The position numbers were made by a program, and so were the translations under genes. 64,000 bases of DNA, taken from Magnetococcales bacterium. Lineage in GTDB: Bacteria > Pseudomonadota > Magnetococcia > Magnetococcales > DC0425bin3. The DNA is taken from positions 148,103 through 212,102 of the forward strand of contig JADGCO010000001.1 of assembly GCA_015228935.1 (NCBI GenBank). The letters run 5' to 3'. The notes below the pieces were generated by a model, which made no database searches, was not told the DNA's origin, and was given only the letters and a program-made list of their open reading frames with translations. Positions 7,215 to 32,501 of this stretch are shown here, piece by piece (positions within the stretch are counted from its first letter, which is position 1; each line of letters begins with the position of its first letter).

Positions 7215-10200
7215 TCATTCCGGGGTCCTTACCAGCGATACATCCAGGGCCAGGGATTGCAGCTCCTTGACCAGGACGTTGAAGGATTCGGGGATTCCCG
7301 CCTCAAACGTATCGTCGCCCTTGACGATGGATTCGTAGATCTTGGTTCGTCCGGCCACGTCATCGGACTTGACCGTCAACATTTCCTGCAACGTATAGGA
7401 CGCACCATAGGCCTCCAAGGCCCAGACCTCCATTTCGCCAAACCGCTGCCCGCCAAACTGGGCCTTGCCACCCAACGGCTGCTGGGTCACCAGAGAGTAG
7501 GGACCAATGGAACGGGCGTGAATCTTGTCGTCCACCAGATGGTGGAGTTTGAGAATGTAAATGTAGCCGACGGTCACCGCCCGGTCGAAATAGTCACCCG
7601 TGCGACCGTCGATGAGACGCACCTGACCCGATTTGGGCAGACCGGCCTGTTCCAGCCAGCCGACGATTTCCTCTTCCCGCGCCCCGTCAAACACGGGCGT
7701 GGCTGCCGGGACACCATCCTTGAGGTTGCCGGCCAGATTCAGGGTTTCGGCGTCGGTCAACTCCCGCAGGTCATCGGCCTGATCCTGGTGATCATAGACC
7801 TCCAGGAGAAAATTCCGCAGATTGGCGACAGGTTCCCCTTTTTGGCACTGTTCCAGGAGCTTGCCGATTTTCTTTCCCAGCCCCTTGGCGGCCCAGCCCA
7901 GATGGGTCTCCAGAATCTGCCCGACATTCATGCGCGACGGCACACCGAGGGGATTGAGAACGATATCCACCGGCTGACCATCTTCCAGGTAGGGCATATC
8001 CTCCACGGGATTGATCTTGGAGATGACACCCTTGTTGCCGTGCCGTCCGGCCATTTTATCGCCTGGTTGCAGCTTGCGCTTGACGGCAATATACACCTTG
8101 ACCATTTTCAGCACGCCGGGGGGCAGATCATCGCCCCGTTCCAGCTTTTCCACCTTGCTTTCAAAGCGTTTTTGCAGTCGCTGGCCGGTTTTCAACACCT
8201 GTGCCCGGATGCCCTCGATCTGCTGCGTCACTACATCGTCATCGAGAACCACGTCCTGAAGATCGCGATTGGTGGCGGTGCGCACCCAATGCTCTTCAAT
8301 CTTGTCGCCGGAACCCAGGCGTGGCGCAGAACGGACCACGCGATGCAGCATCAGGCGCCGGATGCGGTCATCGGCATCATTTTCAATGATGCGGCGTTCA
8401 GCGACCATATCCTTGCGCAGGGCGGCAATCTCTTCCTGATCGATCAACTTGGCCCGATCATCCTTTTCCAGGCCGCGCCGGGAAAAGACCCGCACATTGA
8501 CGACCGTTCCCGAAATGCCCGGCGGCAGGCGCAGGGAAGTATCCCGGACATCGGAGGCTTTTTCTCCGAAGATGGCCCGCAAAAGTTTTTCTTCTGGCGT
8601 CAACTGGGTCTCCCCTTTGGGGGTCACCTTGCCGACCAGAATGTCGCCGGCCTTGACGTCGGCCCCGACATAGATGATGCCGGAGTCGTCCAGATTGCTC
8701 AGGGCCTCTTCGCCGACGTTGGGCATGTCCCGGGTGATCTCTTCCGGCCCGAGTTTGGTATCCCGGGCCATCACCTCGAACTCGTCGATATGGATCGAGG
8801 TGAAGACATCATCCTGGACAAGACGTTCGGAGATGAGGATCGAGTCTTCGAAGTTGTAGCCATTCCAGGGCATGAAGGCGACCAGGACGTTGCGCCCCAA
8901 AGCAAGTTCACCCCATTGGGTGCTGGGTCCATCCGCCACGATATCCCCGCTTCTGACCCGGTCGCCGGCCCGCACCAGGGGCACCTGATTGATGCAGGTA
9001 TTCTGGTTGGAGCGTTCAAACTTGGTCAGATTGTAGATATCGACGCCGGGTTCGCTGGAACCGGGTTCTTCGTCGGCCTTGATGACAATCCGCGAGGCAT
9101 CCACCTCTTCCACCACGCCATGGCGGCGGCTGACGATGGTCACCCCCGAATCCCGGGCCACGACCGGTTCCATGCCGGTCCCCACCAGGGGGGCATCGGT
9201 CTTGATGAGCGGCACGGCCTGCCGCTGCATGTTCGACCCCATCAAGGCGCGGTTGGCGTCGTCGTTTTCCAGAAAGGGAATCAGGGCTGCCGCCACCGAA
9301 ACGATCTGCTTGGGCGACACGTCCATGTACTGGATGCGATCCGGGGTGGCGATGGTAAATTCCAGTTTATGGCGGCACTGTACGACATCGCTGACGTAGC
9401 GCTTTTCGTGATCGAGAACGGCGTTGGCCTGGGCGATGACGTAGTTTTCTTCCTCGATGGCCGACAGATAATCGACTTCATCCGTAACCCGGCCCTCCAC
9501 GACCCGCCGATAGGGGCTTTCGATGAATCCGAAAGCGTTGATCCGGGCGAAGGTCGAAAGACTGTTGATCAGACCGATGTTCGGACCTTCCGGGGTTTCG
9601 ATGGGGCAGATGCGTCCATAATGGGTCGGATGCACGTCCCGGACCTCGAAACCGGCCCGTTCCCGCGTCATGCCTCCCGGTCCCAGGGCCGACAACCGGC
9701 GCTTGTGGGTAATTTCCGACAAGGGATTGGTCTGGTCCATGAACTGGGAGAGCTGACTGGAACCGAAAAATTCCCGAATGACCGCCGAAAAAGGTTTGGA
9801 ATTGAGGACATCGTGCGGCATGAGGGTTTCCGGCTCCGTTGAAGAGAGCCGTTCCCGGATGGCCCGCTCCATGCGGACCAAGCCAATGCGCACCTGATTT
9901 TCCAGCAGTTCGCCCACCGAACGGACGCGGCGATTGCCCAGGTGGTCAATGTCATCCACCTTGCCGTGGCCATCCTTCAGCTTCAGAAGAATGTCCACCA
10001 CACCCAGGATATCTTCCTTGCGGAGAATGCGGACATTCAAGTCGCACTCCAGATTGAGGCGTTTGTTCATCTTCAGCCGCCCAACCGTGGAAAGATCGTA
10101 GCGGTCGGCCTTGAAAAACAGGTTGCTGAACAAATTTTTGGCCGCATCGATGGTGGGGGGTTCCCCGGGGCGCATCATGCGGTAGATGTCGATCAGGGCC

Positions 10201-16696: not shown

Positions 16697-17266
16697 TCAA
16701 GGGGATATCTCATTTTTTTCTGCAACACCTTCCAGGATGGTGACAATCCCCCAGGCCTCTTCCTGGATGGGGTTGCGGTAGGAGTGAACAACATTACCCC
16801 GGAACCGGGCACTGTCTCCGGCACTCAAGGTAACCACCTCTCCCGCCACATCCAGAACAACTTCGCCGCGCAGAACATAGAGGTACTCCTCGCTCCCCGG
16901 CGCATGAGGTTTACCATCATATACCGACTCGGGACGCAAGTGAAAGGCCTGTTGAAAAAAATGGAATACATTGGGGGGGGAGACATTCACGGCCTGGTAG
17001 ACCTCATCACCGGAAATCACCCGCCGCATCTGGTCCTGGCGATACACCTGGATCCGCTTGCAGTCCGACTCCACCAGATCATCAATCGATGTCCCCAGCG
17101 CCGCAGCAATCCGGAATACCACCGCCAGGGATGGGTTGCCGTCATCCCGCTCGGCGGTTGCCAATGTTGCCCGCGGAATTCCCGCCAAATCCGCCAAATG
17201 CTGCTGAGTCCATTTCCGCAGACTCCGAATGGCACGGATCCGCGTCCCTACCAGATTGGTCACCAT
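16697..17266 (-). CDS. XRE-family HTH transcriptional regulator with C-terminal cupin domain
   Basis: Track ORF 16697-17335 trimmed to ATG 17266 (MVTNLVGTRIRAIRSLRKWTQQHLADLAGIPRATLATAERDDGNPSLAVVFRIAAALG = HTH_XRE). The C-terminal half GSEEYLYVLRGEVVLDVAGEVVTLSAGDSARFRGNVVHSYRN is cupin-like. GGAGG lies 8-10 nt upstream of this ATG. Confidence 0.8.
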   Translation of the reverse strand: MVTNLVGTRIRAIRSLRKWTQQHLADLAGIPRATLATAERDDGNPSLAVVFRIAAALGTSIDDLVESDCKRIQVYRQDQMRRVISGDEVYQAVNVSPPNVFHFFQQAFHLRPESVYDGKPHAPGSEEYLYVLRGEVVLDVAGEVVTLSAGDSARFRGNVVHSYRNPIQEEAWGIVTILEGVAEKNEISP

Positions 17267-17400
17267 GGGCCACCTCCTCCCGGTCTGTTCATCACCCGGT
17301 TCCCTTTCTCCACCTGATTGGTCACCATGGGCCACATCCTCCCGGTCTGTTCATCACCCGGTTCCCTTTACTTCTCCAGATTGGTCACCATGGACCTCAC
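17255..17400. repeat. Tandem direct repeat, 62/63-nt unit x about 2.3
   Basis: Copies start at 17255, 17317 and 17380. Each begins ATTGGTCACCATGG, the reverse complement of CCATGGTGACCAAT that holds the regulator start codon. Copies 1 and 2 are near-identical over 62 nt. Copy 3 diverges after about 14 nt. Confidence 0.9.
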
Positions 17401-17744
17401 CATATCAGCCTGTTCCAGGCGCATCATTGACAAAATTACGACATTTTTGATGGTATACCATTTTTTTTTCTTGACGTACAGTTGGCAAATGCACCACAAT
17501 CCTTTCTCATTGGTGGTGCCCAGGTCACGATCACCGTCGCAACCCCGGCACGAGCGTGACACATCACCAGAGTCAAGATTCGATTTCATTGCGATGACTG
17601 AGTATTTTTTGCGTCACTTCGACACATCAACATGAATAGAATGCCTGACGCATCGACGATACGTTCAGGAGAGAACCGGTCCAACTGCCAGGGACCACCT
17701 GCTGACAACACCTCTAAAATCAAGACTGTCAAGGAGAGAATCCC

Positions 17745-18341
17745 ATGAGTGTATTGGTTACCAAACCGGCCCCGGATTTCAAGGCCACCGCTGTCATGCC
17801 CGACAACAGTTTCCAGGAAATTTCCCTGTCCGATTACAAGGGGCAATATGTCGTTCTGTACTTTTACCCCCTGGATTTCACCTTTGTCTGCCCCTCGGAA
17901 ATCATCGCCTTCGATCATCGGCTGAACGAATTCAAACAACGCAAGGTCCAGGTGCTGGGGGTCTCCATCGACTCCCACTTTGTCCACCTGGCCTGGAAAA
18001 ACACCGAGGTCAACAAAGGCGGCATTGGCAATGTGCAATATCCATTGGTGGCCGACATCAGCAAGGCCATTACCCGCGCCTATGATCTGGAAACCGGTCC
18101 CGGCATCTCCCTGCGCGGCTCCTTCCTGATCGACAAGGCCGGTGTGGTCCGGCATCAGGTGGTCAACGACCTCCCCCTGGGCCGTAACATCGACGAAATG
18201 CTGCGCATGGTCGATGCCCTGCAATTTTTCGAGGAACATGGCGAGGTCTGCCCGGCTGGCTGGCAGAAAGGTAAACCCGGCATGAAAGGCTCCACCGCCG
18301 GCGTGGCCGAATATCTGGCCCAGCATGCCAGCAAGCTTTGA
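17745..18341 (+). CDS. ahpC: Typical 2-Cys peroxiredoxin (AhpC/Tsa family)
   Basis: 198-aa ORF with the peroxidatic [10 protein letters not shown] and the resolving EVCPAGW motifs. Confidence 0.93.
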
Positions 18342-19183: not shown

Positions 19184-22100
19184 TCAGCTCTCTTTGGCAG
19201 CAATACGGAAACCGACATTGCCGATTCTTTTTGTCGCAGGGTCACAGCCACGAAAGTCAGACCGCAGGCAATCAGATGGATCAACCCAGGAGCCTCCCCG
19301 CAAAACCATTTTATCTCCCTCGTGGACAATTGGATCGAGCAGTAATCCGTATACATTTCTTTCATGATAATAAAAACTCCGACTCCATTCCCAAACATTT
19401 CCTACCAAATCACTGTGACCGTATGGTCCCTCTCCCAATGGATAAAGGCCCACCGGCGTTGGTACATTGATATTCCCACCAAAATTAGCATGTTCTGGAG
19501 TTGGTTTAGCATCTCCCCAAGGATAAATTCCCCCATCACGTCGTGTCGCCGCTATTTCCCAAACCTTCTCATCGGGTAAACAGATATTTTTTTCTGTCAA
19601 ATCACTTAACCACCGGCAGTAGGCCATGGCTTCAAACCAGGTAACATCAATGACCGGGCGATTGGGATACTGAACATGATGTTCCCACGCACCTGGTTCT
19701 TCCCACATATATTCCAGGCGCAGCTTCCAGCCCTTTTTGTCCCACCATTTTTCTTGCCGATACCCCTCTCCCTGTTCCATAAAAAGCTGATACTCAGCCA
19801 CGGTCACCGGATATTTTCCCAATTTCCATCCTGTCCCGGGAACCGGCAGCAGATTGTCTTGCTTCAGACGGGGGTCTCCTCCTTGCCCTAAAGCTTTTGC
19901 TGCTTCCATACGAGCTTCGATGGAAACTTTTTTTGCTCCTTCCAAGGTAAAAATTTCCATGGAACGCTCAAGCACCTTGCGATAAACGTCTTCAATCTCC
20001 ACCGGTGTTTTGTACTCGTAGGCAGTCATGGGTTGCAGAAGCCGGCCCATGATTCCGGCCATGCGGGCATTTTCTGCCAACGTGCTGTCTTTGCTCCGAG
20101 ACAACAACACCCTTTGTAACAACTGATCCACTCGTCTTGCCCCCCCCTCATCGAAAAGGGCACCGGAAAACAATTCGACCGTTTCCCGCCATTGGGGATT
20201 GTCCAGGCGGTCTTTGATGATCGGCCAATAGTCATCTGGAGAGTTTTCACCATCTCCCATCCATGCCAGGGCCTGGGCTGCCAGGTATTCCTGGAAGGTC
20301 AAATGCCAGAATTTCAGCTTTTGCGGTCCCACCTCTTCGACAATACCGCTCCCCAGGCACTCAAACCCCAACCATGACCGACCAAATTGTAAACGCTCTG
20401 ACTTGCTTGTTAATTGCGGAAAATGCCTCTGCACCCGAGGTTCCACTACCTCGGCTCCTTCCTGGAAATCAAACACCGCCTGTTTGCCACCCTTGCCACC
20501 CTTCATCATGGCCAGAGCCAGATCGGAAAATGCTTCCAGGGCAAAACGATCCTGGTAACCTGCATTCTTGCGCATGATTGTTCGGGCAGCAATCAACCAG
20601 CGCATGACGGCCTGGTAAACCCGTGCCCGGCCTTCCGGCAACTTTCCTTCGTTCCAATGAACCACGCACAAACAGGTCAACATGACCGGATTGGCTGCCA
20701 AGCGTCGAATGGCTGGTTTTTCCAGAATGGTCTGGAGCAGGATTGTGTGATGATCCTGGGCCACTGATTGTTCTGGTCTGCCAGCAGACCGTTCATGCAA
20801 TGCTGCCGACCAGCGAGTAATGAATTCACGGATCTCCGTCTGACTGAAAGGTTCAATCACAGCATGCGAAAATCCCAATCCCCGCATCTGCTTCACCCCA
20901 AAGGGACGACTGGAGACAACCATGGGACACTCTTTCCATTGTTGAACAGCATCCTGAACAATGGCGATCACCCGTTTTCGAATCTCTTCATCGGCCACTT
21001 CATCCAGGCCATCCAGGAGCAGAAAAACTTTTCCTTCTTCCAGCAGGGTTGTCCAATGGTGACGCCAATCCGCATCCTTTTTGGCAGTGAACGTCAGATC
21101 CAACAAATCCAACAACCGGTCGCATCCATGCCTTAATTGACTGACCGTGTCATCCTTGGTCAGGAGTACGGCCAGTTCCGAGAGTCTAAGAAACAGGGGA
21201 TAACGCGGTTCCTCTTTCTCGTCCATTCCCAAATATCGACCCCGCCAACTCCCTCCCGCCGGATGGGAAATTCCAAGCAAATCCTTGGCCAGCATGGCGG
21301 CCACCAGACGCAAAAAAGTGGTCTTGCCGGCACCTGGTTGTCCTTCAATGAGCAGTCGCCTGGATTGCGGCAGTAGTGACGCCAGGGAAGCCGAGTCTCC
21401 CTGCTCCAGGAATTGACCTTCCCTCACTTCACCCCGACTGCGCAACGGGGTGTACAATTGCTCAACATTGTACCATCCCGCATCCTGACTCCGCCCAGCC
21501 CCGGAACCAATGCCACGAATTTCAATCCTGCTCGTGCGCTCCAGCAAGGATTGCAGCCACGGTCGAAGATCCACAGTCGCTCTTGTTGCGCCATTATTGC
21601 TTTCCGACACTTTTTCAGGGGAACGAATCCGAATCCCTTCTGCCTGCTCCGGGCCAAAGGAGGTATCGTGCATAAAAAAGGCATTCCCCCCTCCGGTGAC
21701 AACCCTCTGCAAGGGCCAGATGCGTATTTGACCATCGGGATGCACCTCGCCCCAGGTATACCCCATGCTGCGCGACTCTCTGGCTGTGCCAAAATGTTCC
21801 AATCCGAACAACGAACTGGCCTGAAGGTAAAAACGGGGTTTGCCGCCAGATTCTGCAATACTCCAGGTGTGGTGGGCGTGCCGATGACCACACAGGAGCG
21901 CCAGGAAGCGTTCCGGGGTATAGACGGATTCCTTGAAACGACTCTGGGCATCCCTGGAGAGCCAATCCAGTGGATGGTGCATCATCAACAAGGCAGGATG
22001 TTCTTCCAGAATCCGCAAGGATGTGGAGCGACCGGTCGTTCCAGCCAACAGCAAGGCCTGCAACTGCTCGGCAGCCACTTCCAAACGCCCATGGGAATCC

Positions 22101-23629
22101 CCCTCCAGACACGCCATCCAGGCCGAATTCAGCCCGACAACGACCAGCGGCATACGACCCGGCAGGACAATCTTGACCAGCAAGTCACCAGGAAAATGCG
22201 AACGCCAATAAACACACCCCTTCCGTTGTGCCAATCCGGGCAGGATGGAACGTTCCAACCAGTTTTGATAATTGACAAAAAGCGGATTAAAAAACGCGGC
22301 ATCGCGTTTTTCCCAAAGGGTATCAAGGAGTTGCGCAATATAGGAATCATCCCGTCCCTTGCCAAAATTGTTCAAGATGGCGTAGGGAAAAGCGGCCAAG
22401 CCCTGGGGACGAACCAGGTCATGGTTGCCGGGAACTGGAATTACCAGTGGATCCTGGTCCATCCGGCCACTCCCCCGCAACCAACCCAAAAGCTCTTTCA
22501 GAAAGCCGTCCACAAACTGAAACTCTTCCGGTTGCCCACGCCAGGTCAGGTCACCCGTCAGGAGGATCAAATCCGGTACACCCGCAATCCTGACTCTCTC
22601 CAACAGGCTGGACTTGAATTCCTGATGAACCTGCCACCACAAGGAACGCTCGGGTGCCCCCAGGTGCAAATCCGAAAGGTGCAACCAGCGCAATGGCGCA
22701 TGACCGGCAGAACTCTCCACCCGGAGAACCGTTTTGCTGCTGATTTTCAGCAAGGTTTTGAACAAGGTTTGATAGTCGGCAAACAGGGCGGTGTCATCCA
22801 TCCCTTTGCTACTGACCAAAAGGGATTCATCCACCTCCAACGCGGGCAGGGAGTGAAGAACATGCACCTGTTGCACATTCAGGGTGGCCTCCAACATGTC
22901 GGCTGGTTCATTGAAAAATTCCCGCATATTTTCAGTCCATCTATCCTCCTCTAAAATGGCCTTTTGCGGAATACGAGTCACCACGGGAATCATGGCAATG
23001 GGTAGTGTATCAACAGGACGTTCTACCATCTTGATCCCACGCATGACCGCCCGTGTGCCCAGCAAATTTTCATTATTGTGGGCAAACAGGCACACCACCG
23101 TGTCAGCCAAAATGGAAATGGCCACACCTCCCACTTCGGTAATCCCGGTGCGGGCATCAATCAACAAATAATCCGGTTGAAATTGTTCGGCAATTTTTTC
23201 TTTCAGTTCGAGGAAGAAACCGATACCCCAGGGATCTTCCCCATAAAACATGTCGTGCCAACTCAACATGGCCAAATGTTTCCAATAATCTGTTTTTTCA
23301 GAATTTCCGGCGGCCAGCATGTGGATGCGACCGGCATGGGTTTCTGTCCCAATCGTTGCATCGGCCAGGCGAGGTTCCAGGACCAGGGCTGGAATTTTTT
23401 CCCACAGAAGTTCCTGATTGATTAAAAACCCATGCAGCAGGTCCACCACGCCCCCGGTCAATGGCTGCTGAAGCTGATTTTTAAATTTGTAGTACAATCC
23501 TGGGGCTTCCAGGTCAAAGTCCATGATAAAGACTTTTTTTCCTTCCCGGGCCAGGTATCGGGCCAGATTGGCAAGGGCCATACTGCGCCCCACTCCCCCT
23601 TTATATGAATAAAAAACGATGGTGTGCAT
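19184..23629 (-). CDS. Giant multidomain STAND protein: ParA/MinD-like ATPase, calcineurin-like metallophosphoesterase, NACHT NTPase, helical arm, FGE-sulfatase (SUMF1-like) domain
   Basis: 1481 aa. Residues 1-290: YSYKGGVGRSMALANLA deviant Walker A and LLIDARTG. Residues 313-640: the phosphoesterase motifs HLSDLHLG, LTGDLTWRG, PGNHD, MMHHP and CGHRHAHH. Residues 755-1000: LLIEGQPGAGKTTFLRL and VFLLLDGLDEV (NACHT Walker A and B). Residues 1262-1481: RPVIDVTWFEAMAYCRWL, GNVWEWS, LRGGSW and VGFRIA (FGE-sulfatase). Confidence 0.85.
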   Translation of the reverse strand: MHTIVFYSYKGGVGRSMALANLARYLAREGKKVFIMDFDLEAPGLYYKFKNQLQQPLTGGVVDLLHGFLINQELLWEKIPALVLEPRLADATIGTETHAGRIHMLAAGNSEKTDYWKHLAMLSWHDMFYGEDPWGIGFFLELKEKIAEQFQPDYLLIDARTGITEVGGVAISILADTVVCLFAHNNENLLGTRAVMRGIKMVERPVDTLPIAMIPVVTRIPQKAILEEDRWTENMREFFNEPADMLEATLNVQQVHVLHSLPALEVDESLLVSSKGMDDTALFADYQTLFKTLLKISSKTVLRVESSAGHAPLRWLHLSDLHLGAPERSLWWQVHQEFKSSLLERVRIAGVPDLILLTGDLTWRGQPEEFQFVDGFLKELLGWLRGSGRMDQDPLVIPVPGNHDLVRPQGLAAFPYAILNNFGKGRDDSYIAQLLDTLWEKRDAAFFNPLFVNYQNWLERSILPGLAQRKGCVYWRSHFPGDLLVKIVLPGRMPLVVVGLNSAWMACLEGDSHGRLEVAAEQLQALLLAGTTGRSTSLRILEEHPALLMMHHPLDWLSRDAQSRFKESVYTPERFLALLCGHRHAHHTWSIAESGGKPRFYLQASSLFGLEHFGTARESRSMGYTWGEVHPDGQIRIWPLQRVVTGGGNAFFMHDTSFGPEQAEGIRIRSPEKVSESNNGATRATVDLRPWLQSLLERTSRIEIRGIGSGAGRSQDAGWYNVEQLYTPLRSRGEVREGQFLEQGDSASLASLLPQSRRLLIEGQPGAGKTTFLRLVAAMLAKDLLGISHPAGGSWRGRYLGMDEKEEPRYPLFLRLSELAVLLTKDDTVSQLRHGCDRLLDLLDLTFTAKKDADWRHHWTTLLEEGKVFLLLDGLDEVADEEIRKRVIAIVQDAVQQWKECPMVVSSRPFGVKQMRGLGFSHAVIEPFSQTEIREFITRWSAALHERSAGRPEQSVAQDHHTILLQTILEKPAIRRLAANPVMLTCLCVVHWNEGKLPEGRARVYQAVMRWLIAARTIMRKNAGYQDRFALEAFSDLALAMMKGGKGGKQAVFDFQEGAEVVEPRVQRHFPQLTSKSERLQFGRSWLGFECLGSGIVEEVGPQKLKFWHLTFQEYLAAQALAWMGDGENSPDDYWPIIKDRLDNPQWRETVELFSGALFDEGGARRVDQLLQRVLLSRSKDSTLAENARMAGIMGRLLQPMTAYEYKTPVEIEDVYRKVLERSMEIFTLEGAKKVSIEARMEAAKALGQGGDPRLKQDNLLPVPGTGWKLGKYPVTVAEYQLFMEQGEGYRQEKWWDKKGWKLRLEYMWEEPGAWEHHVQYPNRPVIDVTWFEAMAYCRWLSDLTEKNICLPDEKVWEIAATRRDGGIYPWGDAKPTPEHANFGGNINVPTPVGLYPLGEGPYGHSDLVGNVWEWSRSFYYHERNVYGLLLDPIVHEGDKMVLRGGSWVDPSDCLRSDFRGCDPATKRIGNVGFRIAAKES

Positions 23630-23646
23630 GGTTCACCTGGACACTT

Positions 23647-24240
23647 TCAAGCGGGAGAAAACACCTGACCCTTGCCGGCTTTGGAATGAAGAACATCTTT
23701 TTCCTGAGATGTCCTATGCTTCATTCCCGGCAACACATTCTGCCGTTCATTTTTTTGCTTCTGGAGTTCTTCATTGCATAATGTTAAAATTTTTAACGTT
23801 TCCAGATACATTTGACGATTTTTTCCCATCGCCGGAGAGTGCAGCATAGCGATCATGATCGCCTGGGCTTGAAGAAAACGTTTCTTGGGCAACAATTCAT
23901 TTTGAATGCGCTGAAGAAAATCCTCAATCTTGTCGGCAGGCGCACGTTGCAAAAGCCGGATGGATGCATCTTGATTTTGTTCGGGTTGGTCCTGCAAAAA
24001 CTTTTTTGCCGCCTCCACGAAAGCGTTTCGCAAATAGACGATCAAAGCTTGCCAATCCGGGAAGGGAGGCATGGCAGACACTGGTTGAAAATTGCCGTTG
24101 GCAAGCAATTGATTCATGTCTGAGTCACTGATCCAGGGGCATCGTTCCTTACTGTATGGTGGTCGCAGGAGCCGTAATTTTTGTTCCATACGCACCACGG
24201 CCCACCCATCTTCCACTGAACATGCCAATAATTCAATCAT
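23647..24240 (-). CDS. Hypothetical protein (197 aa), operon partner of the NACHT protein
   Basis: Complete ORF. Its ATG overlaps the upstream stop (ATGA at 24237-24240), and it ends 17 nt before the NACHT gene start. I recognise no motif. The central and C-terminal part looks helical and is rich in charged residues and Gln. Confidence 0.6.
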   Translation of the reverse strand: MIELLACSVEDGWAVVRMEQKLRLLRPPYSKERCPWISDSDMNQLLANGNFQPVSAMPPFPDWQALIVYLRNAFVEAAKKFLQDQPEQNQDASIRLLQRAPADKIEDFLQRIQNELLPKKRFLQAQAIMIAMLHSPAMGKNRQMYLETLKILTLCNEELQKQKNERQNVLPGMKHRTSQEKDVLHSKAGKGQVFSPA

Positions 24241-25079
24241 AGTGTTTTGCCCCAGGGAATATTATGAATGTCCAACTGCTCAACAACAGTAGTGAACAGT
24301 GCAACTTCCATTCTTCTGCTTTTATCACCCATCGTATTCGCGTTTATGTCATCAAACGCTGAGTTTAAAAGACTTTCAAGCAGATTTTTCTCAATGCGAA
24401 CCTCTTCAATTTGCTCAGGAGTCAGGGAACCAACAAATATCACCTCTATATATTTCGTTTCTTTACAAACCAGTTCCGGCCAATCTTTTTGATCAATTTT
24501 TGCAATTTCTTCGTGATGTTTAAGGGCAGCAAGAGTGTGTCGCTGTTCCATGCTGGCCAGTTCCTGTTTAAATTTATCAAATATCAGAGTAGACTTCGCA
24601 TCCATATACCCAACCAAACTGTCTTCGGCAAGATAGATTGACAATATTTTTTCCCAATATTTTTCCTGCACCACGACGCAGTAATCTCCGTATTTTCTGG
24701 TTCCCTCACCTCCGATATTCAATAAACCATAATAAAATTTTTCCCCATCGACAAAAATTGACTCAAAATTCTTTCTTGGAAGATACCACTCACGCAGCTT
24801 TTCCTCCATCAATCTTTCCGGAGTTCTTCTGCCACGGATTGCGATCTGGTTTGCCCAATCATGAATATTTTTATACTTCTTGCTGAACAAAAAATCATTC
24901 AGCACATAGAGATGCATATTGATGGAAACCCGGGCTGTATTCTGGACATGATTCCGGAAACGACTCAAGAGTGTCGCATCGACTCCGGGAGTGGTCAGAA
25001 GGGTCTGATAACGACTTTCCAGGTCTGGGTCATTTTGTTGCGCCAAGGCAAAAATATCGAGTTTTGAGGAGAGGGACAC
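24237..25079 (-). CDS. Hypothetical protein (280 aa), first gene of the NACHT operon
   Basis: Complete ORF with a GTG start at 25079. This is the most AT-rich part of the window, so a 280-codon open frame is unlikely to be chance. No recognisable domain. Confidence 0.6.
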   Translation of the reverse strand: MSLSSKLDIFALAQQNDPDLESRYQTLLTTPGVDATLLSRFRNHVQNTARVSINMHLYVLNDFLFSKKYKNIHDWANQIAIRGRRTPERLMEEKLREWYLPRKNFESIFVDGEKFYYGLLNIGGEGTRKYGDYCVVVQEKYWEKILSIYLAEDSLVGYMDAKSTLIFDKFKQELASMEQRHTLAALKHHEEIAKIDQKDWPELVCKETKYIEVIFVGSLTPEQIEEVRIEKNLLESLLNSAFDDINANTMGDKSRRMEVALFTTVVEQLDIHNIPWGKTL

Positions 25080-25566
25080 CTGCTTGCATCCCTGATTGGA
25101 GTCACGATTCCGAAGGGATGAAATCCATGGTCAGCCTGTCTGAAATTTTGATTTCACTCATGCGGACGGCGGTTATTTTATCATGAATTGATCGTCCGTC
25201 AAGATTTTAATTTTCGTTTGTGTCCTATTTCCAGAATCCAATCGCGACGGAAGCATATTTGAATGCCAGCCCGCTGATTAAACTTTATGCAGTGTCCTGG
25301 TGTGGGGAAGTTGGGTGGAATCTCCAAAAGGCAGACAGCACTCGCTCCAATTAAATGGCATATTACTTGCTTGAACCATGGCATCGGGTCTGATCGGGTT
25401 GAATGTTTGCTGGGTCTCATCTAAGATAGTGAAGAGAGTTCATTTTACGAACTGTGTAGCCACCAGTGTGGAGAGTGAGTGAATATTATGATCAGGGGGG
25501 AATATCCATCAGCCCTGGCTGGCTTGGTCAGGATATTTCAGATCATGAATAGACACTCAAACCTAG

Positions 25567-31982: not shown

Positions 31983-32501
31983 ATGAAGAAAAACAGCATT
32001 CGTATCTTGCCAGGACAAAAAAGCTGGCAAGAATACGGCAGGCCAAACCTTGCGGAAGTTCCCGATCATTTTCGGATTCGACAACCTGCAATACTTATTG
32101 CCGGTAGATCATTGGACGAGGCTTTGCAAATTTTGACAAACGCAGTCGGAATTTCCCCGACAAATTTGATGCGCATCGTGGAAACTCCGGTCGAGAAAGT
32201 AATCCTGCAACGAAAACTATTGGAACATGTGGCAGTAAAAAGAACAGATGCCCGGGAGCAATTTGGTAATTTTTTGCTTCCGACGTTGACCGATCCCTAT
32301 GAGGTATGGCTGACACGGTATCAAGATGGATACCGCACTCAGTATATTGGTCTGTTCCAAGGACACCGCGACATGCTGGCTATCGTCCAGGTGACCCAGG
32401 AAAAGAACTTGTTTTGGAACTTGATCCGTGCAAGATCCAGATACATGGACAGCCGGCGTGTTGGAACATTGATTTACACAAAAGAAAAGGTGGGAGGTTA
32501 G
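31983..32501 (+). CDS. Hypothetical protein, possibly a phage/plasmid-type BECR-fold (PBECR-like) nuclease domain
   Basis: 172 aa. The segment LLEHVAVKRTDAREQFGNFLLPTLTDPYEVWL...YIGLF resembles the H..K/R...lp.l..Pdev... pattern I associate with PBECR domains. This is weak, by-eye evidence only. Confidence 0.45.
   Translation: MKKNSIRILPGQKSWQEYGRPNLAEVPDHFRIRQPAILIAGRSLDEALQILTNAVGISPTNLMRIVETPVEKVILQRKLLEHVAVKRTDAREQFGNFLLPTLTDPYEVWLTRYQDGYRTQYIGLFQGHRDMLAIVQVTQEKNLFWNLIRARSRYMDSRRVGTLIYTKEKVGG

Follow-up and report, generated by a model that had tools for sequence, protein, structure and literature searches.

What is the three-gene operon on the minus strand of a Magnetococcales contig (GenBank assembly GCA_015228935.1, JADGCO010000001.1, positions 148,103 to 212,102 of the forward strand), and do its two small genes belong with the giant protein encoded behind them? 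We analyzed this stretch of 64,000 nucleotides, hereafter the window, and call the genes, in their order in the operon, A, B and C. The original prediction, made from the sequence alone, read them as an undescribed conflict system, with a ParA-like ATPase, a phosphoesterase, a NACHT switch and an FGE-sulfatase domain joined in C, and with A and B as obligately linked partners. Our analysis indicates that the operon is probably a horizontally acquired, immune-type system built of two modules that occur separately elsewhere: an NLR-like protein, and a cassette of A, B and an ATPase with a variant KGGVGR motif, which forms the N-terminal head of C. By analogy with related systems an immune role is likely, and A and B seem to be partners of the head and not of the NACHT part of C.

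The open reading frame (ORF) list reproduces the three tightly packed genes of that prediction (Table 1). A and B share 4 nt (ATGA), and the 17-nt spacer between B and C contains an AGGTGA-like ribosome-binding site. Because A has 431 homologous clusters, and other genomes carry conserved homologues of B and C in unchanged order, we regard all three as real genes. The 487-nt intergenic region upstream (45% GC) holds a single promoter-like match placed upstream of the operon; the number of such matches in this region is not above that in shuffled sequences, and the site remains a candidate. The GC content at third codon positions (GC3) is 0.42 in A, 0.49 in B and 0.43-0.60 in segments of C, as compared with 0.72-0.76 in rpoBC/tuf and 0.61-0.68 in the genes that flank the operon. 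From this foreign composition the operon looks horizontally acquired, and the earlier remark on an AT-rich island holds for the operon itself; neither an integrase nor a flanking repeat was found around it in the 64-kb window. A protein 100% identical to C is encoded in a metagenome-assembled genome (MAG) of Magnetococcus sp. DMHC-1.

All four domain calls in C are above the Pfam gathering scores, and the KGGVGRS and GAGKT motifs are both present, as predicted. The calcineurin-like metallophosphatase keeps all five of its motifs (DxH at residues 318-324, GD at 358-362, GNHD at 401-404, HH at 549-553 and GHxH at 581-586) and also matches PADLOC PDC-S60 (E=7e-12). The NACHT match (36.1 bits, cutoff 26.7), together with one to NPHP3_N, lies at residues 755-941, and among solved structures the FGE-fold domain comes closest to the C-terminal domain of EgtB (E=8e-31). 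C therefore has the tripartite effector-NTPase-sensor layout, with an extra ATPase head preceding the effector. This is the logic of bNACHT and Avs proteins to which the original prediction pointed, and the FGE-type domain is indeed a catalogued sensor module: Kaur et al. 2021 (eLife e70394) described STAND NTPase-FGS proteins as widespread among bacteria and archaea, calcineurin being one of the effectors at their N-terminus, and proposed the lectin-fold FGS as an invader sensor that is often diversified by diversity-generating retroelements (DGRs). The preprint of Kibby et al. 2022 recognizes two antigen-receptor-type C-termini in bacterial NACHT proteins, one of them FGS, and includes calcineurin-like phosphoesterases among the bNACHT effectors; a 2026 STAND survey shows FGE-like sensors too. 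Among the PADLOC matches at E<=0.1 there was no Avs (AVAST) model.

The public label of C, "SUMF1/EgtB/PvdO family nonheme iron enzyme," would lead in another direction. It fits a non-conflict function in which the FGE-like domain is a genuine SUMF1/EgtB-type enzyme, or in which the head positions or organizes a cellular structure, as ParA/MinD relatives that are positioning ATPases do; the housekeeping neighborhood of the operon agrees with such a function. However, the egtB model scores 101 bits (cutoff 360) and is matched at model positions 206-413 only, which is its FGE-like C-terminal half. Since the N-terminal catalytic half of EgtB is absent, the label is unlikely to describe the role of C. 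The sequence likeness of the head to solved MinD/ParA proteins is likewise limited to the first ~50 residues, the P-loop region (profile positions ~1-60), where arginine stands for the Walker A lysine. Taking this together with a patchy distribution across phyla in variable surroundings, an architecture of the catalogued STAND-FGS conflict type, and a close family member that is a DGR target (at locus L118, described below), we consider a non-conflict function highly improbable.

To which part of C do A and B belong? The closest four-domain homologue of C, P0002 (54% identical), lies in a locus (L001) that also has orthologues of A (35% identical) and B (39%), overlapping as in the window; its surroundings are different and adjoin nos genes. 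Word-indexed searches with A and B returned the queries themselves and one fragment only, and missed these 35-39% identical orthologues. Exhaustive HMMER over 1.84 billion representatives gave 431 A-family clusters at E<=1e-3 and 273 at E<=1e-10, nearly all of ~275 aa. With A alone (a 12-sequence subset of our 57-sequence alignment, the full set being too diverse), we retrieved 23 loci from species-representative genomes of many phyla, namely Acidobacteriota, Planctomycetota, Myxococcota, Armatimonadota, Gammaproteobacteria, Bipolaricaulota and Magnetococcales. B lies directly 3' of A in 22 of them, the exception being a truncated A near a contig end, and a KGGVGR-head gene follows B in 19 of the 21 evaluable loci. 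The A, B and head families are all that is conserved across these loci; the flanks are variable and consist mostly of housekeeping genes. The co-conservation of three genes expected in the original prediction is thus found both in L001 and, for A, B and the head, far beyond it. The head proteins of these triads are usually 500-800 aa long and carry TPR repeats; two have a Peptidase_C25-like (caspase/gingipain-fold) domain. The reverse scan with the head gave 582 metagenome loci; of the best 80, 61 had upstream sequence sufficient to judge, and 14 of these 61 had A-B. These 14 are the heads most similar to that of the window, at ~43% identity or more.

Some triads depart from this plan. Stand-alone heads of ~298 aa occur in L012 (11399-12295) and L015 (11414-12310), and in a Magnetococcales MAG the head is split by a frameshift (L016:2096-3086); such stand-alone or split heads can be natural variants, pseudogenes or assembly errors. 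At L009:10001-13087, B is extended at its C-terminus by ~130 aa, and the gene after it encodes an unannotated protein of 443 aa; at L022:6171-9164, two ORFs make up A, B is cut short at 173 aa and the next gene encodes an FG-GAP repeat protein. No KGGVGR gene lies downstream in either.

The Metallophos-NACHT-FGE core of C (~1150 aa), in turn, is common and occurs alone. At five loci that encode headless homologues (L002, L004, L116, L117 and L118), profile hidden Markov model searches found neither A, B nor a head. Because headless homologues are without both small genes, and because A-B-head triads mostly carry TPR repeats and not NACHT, A and B appear to track the head; here the original prediction, which made them partners of the NACHT system, has to be revised. 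The parts of C also have different nearest relatives. Its NACHT part is closest to headless Magnetococcales proteins (62% identical), as compared with 52% for the other four-domain protein. For the metallophosphatase, the nearest relative is the latter protein (62%); for the head, the nearest are heads from triads that have other C-termini (54% and 50.5%). The simplest reading of this mosaic ancestry would be that a resident-type Metallophos-NACHT-FGE gene was joined in frame to the third gene of an A-B-KGGVGR triad, and that single domains were exchanged later on. Independent fusions of A-B-linked heads to NACHT-FGE (L033, L109) and to Metallophos (L029, ended by the contig edge) were also found.

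Further conflict-type genes were seen near some triads or homologues. A TIR protein is encoded 2 kb downstream of the triad at L109 (10787-11983), a NACHT-FGE gene and a TIR gene adjoin the headless homologue at L117 (5633-8904), a 951-aa protein with a C-terminal FGE-sulfatase domain follows an A-B-head-TPR triad at L020 (14146-17001), and a 1061-aa patatin-like protein is encoded at L006 (13909-17094).

These results bear on a simpler explanation, in which C alone is the whole defense system and A and B are an unrelated traveling cassette, such as an ordinary toxin-antitoxin pair. Headless homologues do occur as stand-alone genes, bNACHT genes are rarely found in operons according to Kibby et al. 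2022, and a single protein suffices in DS-8, a metallophosphatase-NACHT system validated against phage by DefensePredictor (Science 2026, PMC13092281), in which both domains are needed. But A, B and C adjoin one another with junctions of 4 and 17 nt, the head follows A-B in 19 of 21 evaluable genomes whatever its fusion, A-B is never beside the five headless homologues, and the C-terminal tail motif of B, described below, correlates with the presence of the head. We therefore consider it quite unlikely that C acts alone. As a protein taken by itself, C is a more ordinary result, a new architectural variant of the metallophosphatase-NACHT/STAND-FGS class.

One headless relative raises the question of whether the sensor is hypervariable. 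P0018 (L118:4001-11483) is a headless Metallophos-NACHT-FGE protein, 45% identical, and a genuine DGR target: a template-like repeat at 8584-8703 matches the last ~120 nt of its gene at 87.5% identity and adjoins an RVT_1 reverse transcriptase (8877-9917), and a convergent SIR2-NACHT-FGE gene, whose 3' end holds another copy (88.5%), is a second target. Since the literature also ties STAND-FGS proteins to DGRs, the operon could be imagined as part of a DGR-based "adaptive" sensor system. In the 64-kb window, however, the 3' end of C is not repeated and no reverse-transcriptase-like ORF is present, and we think this explanation very unlikely for the present locus.

If A and B belong with the head, its properties become central. 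The head scores 153.5 bits against NCBIfam NF047398 (cutoff 90) over residues 1-199, with a P-loop of the form KGGxGR[ST], and 109 bits (E=6e-32) against a part of PADLOC PDC-M28B (positions 129-306 of 438); Pfam CbiA, AAA_31 and ParA matches cover residues 1 to ~150. Against the NCBIfam models minD, ParA_partition and BcsQ it reaches 21-27 bits (cutoffs 158-213), over ~40 residues. Its Walker A motif is deviant: the signature lysine is retained, and arginine replaces the canonical P-loop lysine. Arginine, never lysine, stands at this position in all 82 of 82 head-bearing homologues, and K10, G11, G12, G14, R15, D37, D39, D158, R160, T161 and G162 are invariant in 12 diverse heads. Strict conservation of nucleotide-pocket residues argues for a pocket that is specialized, not decayed. 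With arginine in place of lysine, hydrolysis may be slow or absent, which would agree with the label "inactive" given by Kaur et al. 2020, who noted an "inactive MinD/ParA-like" domain as a recurrent module of conflict systems.

Members of the A family share the motif F[RHY]YGALNIGGxGxxxYGxFC. N54 and G126 are invariant, and R102, Y117, C134, S154, K187, W200, E212 and R228 are near-invariant; because of these conserved polar residues we suggest that A is an enzyme. It has no match in Pfam, PADLOC or NCBIfam (here and below, such negatives hold as of the library dates) and no sequence relative in the PDB by profile search, and 57 family members scanned against Pfam gave no consistent family. 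At E<=0.1, A and B match no PADLOC model, and hence no PDC-M28A-like partner was recognized. By motif inspection only, an ADP-ribosyltransferase, a HEPN protein, a pol-beta nucleotidyltransferase and a RES-type protein were each considered for A and set aside, as the order and spacing of the conserved residues do not fit. We regard A as a putative enzymatic effector or toxin; the step to a toxin, drawn by analogy, is a tentative one that may well prove wrong.

B has an N-terminal DGWAxV...LRPPY element followed by a helical body, and belongs to an unannotated family with no match in Pfam, NCBIfam or PADLOC and no significant PDB match by profile search. It may be an adaptor or an antitoxin-like partner. 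What it shares with other proteins is its C-terminus (Table 1), which in the window terminates in KGQVFSPA: middle proteins of unrelated families carry a similar tail, in which basic residues are followed by G/S-x-hydrophobic-hydrophobic a few residues before the end. A strict form of this motif was found in 28 of 99 middle proteins as against 28 of 1393 control ORFs, and a loose form in 63 of 99 as against 15% of controls, figures that are indicative only, since the motif was defined post hoc and the sequences are related and not independent. The tail is absent in all three B-like proteins that have no head gene (at L009 and L022, and the lone fragment P0123 at L005). Because the head is the sole element common to the third genes, and the tail the sole element common to the middle genes, we propose, with some reserve, that the tail could be a docking peptide for the head. 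The fragment P0123 (L005:5614-6006; 130 aa, 57% identical to B) is a truncated gene without the C-terminal half and tail and without A or a head gene, with a protoglobin-GGDEF gene on one side and a HicB antitoxin gene on the other; it is probably a relic.

Heads are also found where A and B are not. At most of the 47 head loci without A-B, two small co-directional genes lie directly 5' of the head gene, and ~30 of these loci fall into three other pairs: pair X, DUF6932 with an XRE-type helix-turn-helix (HTH) protein, at 10 loci; pair Y, a first gene of unknown family (Y1) with Y2, at 8-9 loci, with Y2 distantly homologous to B (hhalign probability 89%, E=2.5e-6); and pair Z, an unknown gene with an MqsA-like gene. 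The heads themselves are fused to TIR, SIR2, Mrr, DUF4062, NACHT, nSTAND1, Peptidase_C25-like and Cmr1 domains. At L111, for example, a Y-type pair precedes a head-TIR-DUF4062-NACHT-FGE protein; at L112, a small gene and a TIR protein precede head-Mrr-NACHT; and at L003, a TIR protein precedes a distant head-Metallophos-NACHT-FGE protein. At L114 (2721-13081), and also at L115, a type III-B Cmr operon opens with the gene for a head-TPR-RAMP (Cmr1-like) protein; at L114 the operon continues with Cas10/Cmr2, Cmr3, Cmr4, Cmr5 and Cmr6 and has Cas6, Cas2 and a reverse-transcriptase-fused gene close by. Upstream of this fusion are three small genes without annotation, of 227, 261 and 235 aa, the last of which ends in ...PRVLLVGGKKAA. 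Further head-RAMP fusions are P0075, P0092, P0094, P0097, P0098, P0111 and P0117.

Two of the sister pairs, DUF6932 with XRE HTH and the unknown gene with the MqsA-like one, are of toxin-antitoxin type. Antitoxin-type middle genes and a toxin-first order in some sister triads, together with the foreign composition of the operon and the lack of enrichment in defense islands, would suit a tripartite addiction or stress module of toxin, antitoxin and ATPase "chaperone," whose primary task is plasmid or island stabilization or growth control, and not the sensing of invaders, and to which the NACHT fusion was an opportunistic addition. Against this stand the repeated fusion of heads to TIR, SIR2, STAND, caspase-like and, inside a type III-B operon, Cmr1 domains, the sensor-like TPR repeats that third genes usually have, and the absence of A from plasmids and viral contigs. 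We judge an addiction module in this strict sense unlikely; it does not exclude an immune role, because many toxin-antitoxin-like modules act in abortive infection.

We propose the following scheme for the immune-type operon. Its first module would be an NLR-like protein, sensor and effector in one (metallophosphatase, NACHT and FGE/lectin-fold domains), of the bNACHT/STAND-FGS class and distantly related to DS-8; its second would be the widespread cassette of A, B and the KGGVGR-variant ParA/MinD-like ATPase, which normally carries C-terminal TPR repeats. In Magnetococcales the ATPase head would have been joined in frame to the N-terminus of the first module, and A and B would therefore be partners of the head. 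Binding of an invader-derived ligand by the FGE-fold domain may lead to ATP-dependent oligomerization of NACHT, which would switch on the metallophosphatase in cis as a nucleotide or nucleic-acid phosphodiesterase. Oligomerization would also bring the heads together, and these may form nucleotide-sandwich dimers like those of other deviant-Walker-A ATPases. The altered state of the heads could then change the binding of B through its C-terminal tail, so that A is freed or activated as a second output in trans. More generally, the first gene (A, DUF6932 and others) may be a variable output, the middle gene an adaptor or antitoxin-like element, and the domains fused to the head the input.

This scheme draws on two kinds of precedent. 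ATPases of the ParA/MinD superfamily form ATP-bound sandwich dimers and are regulated by short peptides of partner proteins. The triad resembles ParA-ParB and MinD-MinE/MinC in the signature lysine of KGG, in switch I and II, in having small partners beside the ATPase, and in a short conserved terminal peptide. It differs in that canonical ParA and MinD keep the Walker A lysine, where every KGGVGR member has arginine, and in that the head is fused to sensors or effectors, unlike stand-alone ParA/MinD; no homology of A or B to ParB, MinE or MinC was found with Pfam, PADLOC or NCBIfam. In tripartite toxin-antitoxin-chaperone systems, the third component binds a C-terminal extension of the antitoxin. 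Sister triads recall these and MqsRA in having an MqsA-like or XRE middle gene after a small gene and a conserved C-terminal extension of the middle protein. Unlike them, A and B match no toxin-antitoxin family, and where such systems have a SecB-like chaperone, the triad has a ParA-like ATPase with sensor domains.

How much of this is new? The original prediction held the combination to be undescribed, above all the two small genes and the ParA-like head, and this is partly right. The core is catalogued, a relative of it (DS-8) is validated, and the MinD/ParA-like domain had been noted; the head with its two unknown genes is what appears to be unrecognized. DS-8, like C, has a calcineurin-like metallophosphatase followed by NACHT, with intact catalytic and Walker motifs. 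C is not an orthologue of it, because its match to NCBIfam DS8 (NF053861; E=3e-18, best stretch residues 317-407) reaches 64.9 bits against an equivalog cutoff of 790, and the match to DS9_1 (48.8 bits) is also well under its cutoff. Beyond DS-8, which is a single gene, C has the KGGVGR head, the C-terminal FGE-fold domain and two upstream partner genes. With STAND-FGS and bNACHT-FGS proteins it shares the order of effector (calcineurin being among those listed), STAND/NACHT and C-terminal FGS, and its headless homologues fit this class exactly. Many members of the class are linked to DGRs, unlike C in its 64-kb window, and an N-terminal KGGVGR head with two conserved small partner genes is not among the architectures in Kaur et al. 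2021 or Kibby et al. 2022. C is thus a new architectural variant of a catalogued class and not a new kind of protein. As for the head, NF047398 and PDC-M28B resemble it as modules fused to conflict-type domains; these descriptions and that of Kaur et al. 2020 do not include the A-B pair, the alternative upstream pairs or the shared tail. In open-access papers and bioRxiv we found no published function, partner or mechanism for the KGGVGR domain, and no relevant description under KGGVGR, PDC-M28, DUF6932, ParA-like tripartite toxin-antitoxin systems or Cmr1-ParA fusions. The A-B-KGGVGR triad and its sister triads appear, from the papers and family libraries searched, to be undescribed.

Going one step further, A, B and the KGGVGR ATPase could represent a new and widespread three-component class, in which the ATPase reads a fused or neighboring sensor and gates a first-gene effector or toxin through the tail of the middle protein. 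We hold this to be a serious possibility, though somewhat short of an even chance. The sensors of such a class might be TPR repeats, NLR-like STAND proteins and even type III-B Cmr complexes, and its outputs A, DUF6932 and the first genes of pairs Y and Z. The operon in the window might then be an NLR with two outputs, the phosphoesterase in cis and A in trans.

Several points weigh against an immune-type operon of this design. The genes that flank it in the window (superoxide dismutase (SOD), GGDEF/EAL, aminopeptidase, CobO) do not form a defense island. Around 35 A-B loci, the 123 neighbors at a distance of up to ~3 kb are for the most part housekeeping genes, with few conflict genes among them: one type IIG restriction-modification/DrmMI-like gene, one PD-T4-6-like kinase, two MazE and two NYN genes. 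PADLOC mad3/mad8 matches among these neighbors coincide with generic ABC/P-loop proteins, and we do not count them as defense genes. A defense-island setting is therefore unsupported by either set of genes, and the check suggested in the original prediction, enrichment near defense genes, gave a weak result. Two A-B loci (L009 and L022) have no head gene. The domain of Kaur et al. 2020 was predicted to be inactive, which would argue against an ATP-driven switch, even though the pocket motifs are invariant. The case for A as a toxin comes solely from gene position and from analogy with the sister clades. Searches of viral contigs and plasmids gave no A. For neither A nor B could a fold or family be detected, and the AlphaFold2 models are useless, with a predicted local distance difference test score (pLDDT) of 33 for A from a single sequence and 41 for B from three. 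The low score against DS8 and the post hoc nature of the tail motif belong here too.

Table 1. Features of the A-B-C operon (window coordinates)
Feature	Position	Strand	Description	Source
Gene A	24237-25079	-	280 aa, GTG start; first gene of operon	ORF list
Gene B	23647-24240	-	197 aa, ATG start; second gene of operon	ORF list
Gene C	19184-23629	-	1481 aa, ATG start; third gene, four-module giant	ORF list
Candidate operon promoter	25175..25202	-	TTGACG-16 nt-TAAAAT, TG extended -10; ~95 nt 5' of the GTG of A	
B C-terminal tail	23650..23688	-	HSKAGKGQVFSPA; basic-G/S-x-hydrophobic-hydrophobic motif, common to middle proteins of KGGVGR triads	
Head of C	22745..23629	-	KGGVGR-motif variant ParA/MinD-like ATPase, aa 1-295	NCBIfam NF047398, PADLOC PDC-M28B
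Head Walker A	23582-23602	-	KGGVGRS, aa 10-16	Motif search
Head switch I	23498-23521	-	DFDLEAPG	Motif search
Head Walker B/switch II	23144-23161	-	IDARTG	Motif search
Metallophosphatase of C	21710..22690	-	Calcineurin-like, aa ~314-640; predicted cis effector	Pfam Metallophos, 36.1 bits, cutoff 21.5
NACHT of C	19865..21397	-	STAND NTPase and following helical region, aa ~745-1255	Pfam NACHT, NPHP3_N
NACHT Walker A	21317-21343	-	GQPGAGKTT, aa 763-771	Motif search
NACHT Walker B	20999-21022	-	LLLDGLDE, aa 870-877	Motif search
FGE-fold domain of C	19199..19828	-	FGE-sulfatase/SUMF1-like, C-type-lectin fold, aa 1268-1477; predicted ligand sensor	Pfam, E=2e-38

The operon lies 2.5 kb from a conserved cluster of tRNA-Tyr/Gly/Thr, tuf, tRNA-Trp, secE, nusG and rpoBC. 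The adjoining genes encode an HTH-cupin regulator, a protein of unknown family, an Fe/Mn-SOD, two GGDEF/EAL proteins, an aminopeptidase and CobO. A unit of ~62 nt is repeated three times in tandem at 17233-17415 (72-87% identity), each copy with GATTGGTCACCATGG, and overlaps the 5' end and upstream region of the HTH-cupin gene (16697-17335, minus strand). Between this gene and that for SOD, a 246-aa ORF on the minus strand (17586-18326) has no match in Pfam or PADLOC and a GC3 of 0.59, below that of the housekeeping genes. Directly after the CobO gene and ~7 kb from the operon, a 172-aa ORF on the plus strand (31983-32501) carries a toxin-type PBECR2 domain (phage-Barnase-EndoU-ColicinE5/D-RelE-like nuclease 2; E=2e-17).

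If the proposed class is real, it would add to prokaryotic immunity a new modular output or regulatory arm, common to TPR sensors, NLR-like STAND proteins and type III CRISPR systems. It would give a function to a domain that has been labeled "inactive MinD/ParA-like" or "KGGVGR variant ATPase," and establish A (~430 clusters) and B as two new protein families. It would be a defense-like system outside defense islands, where screens by guilt by association miss such loci. For Magnetococcales, the operon would offer a testable case of an NLR-like protein that couples an effector in cis to an effector in trans.

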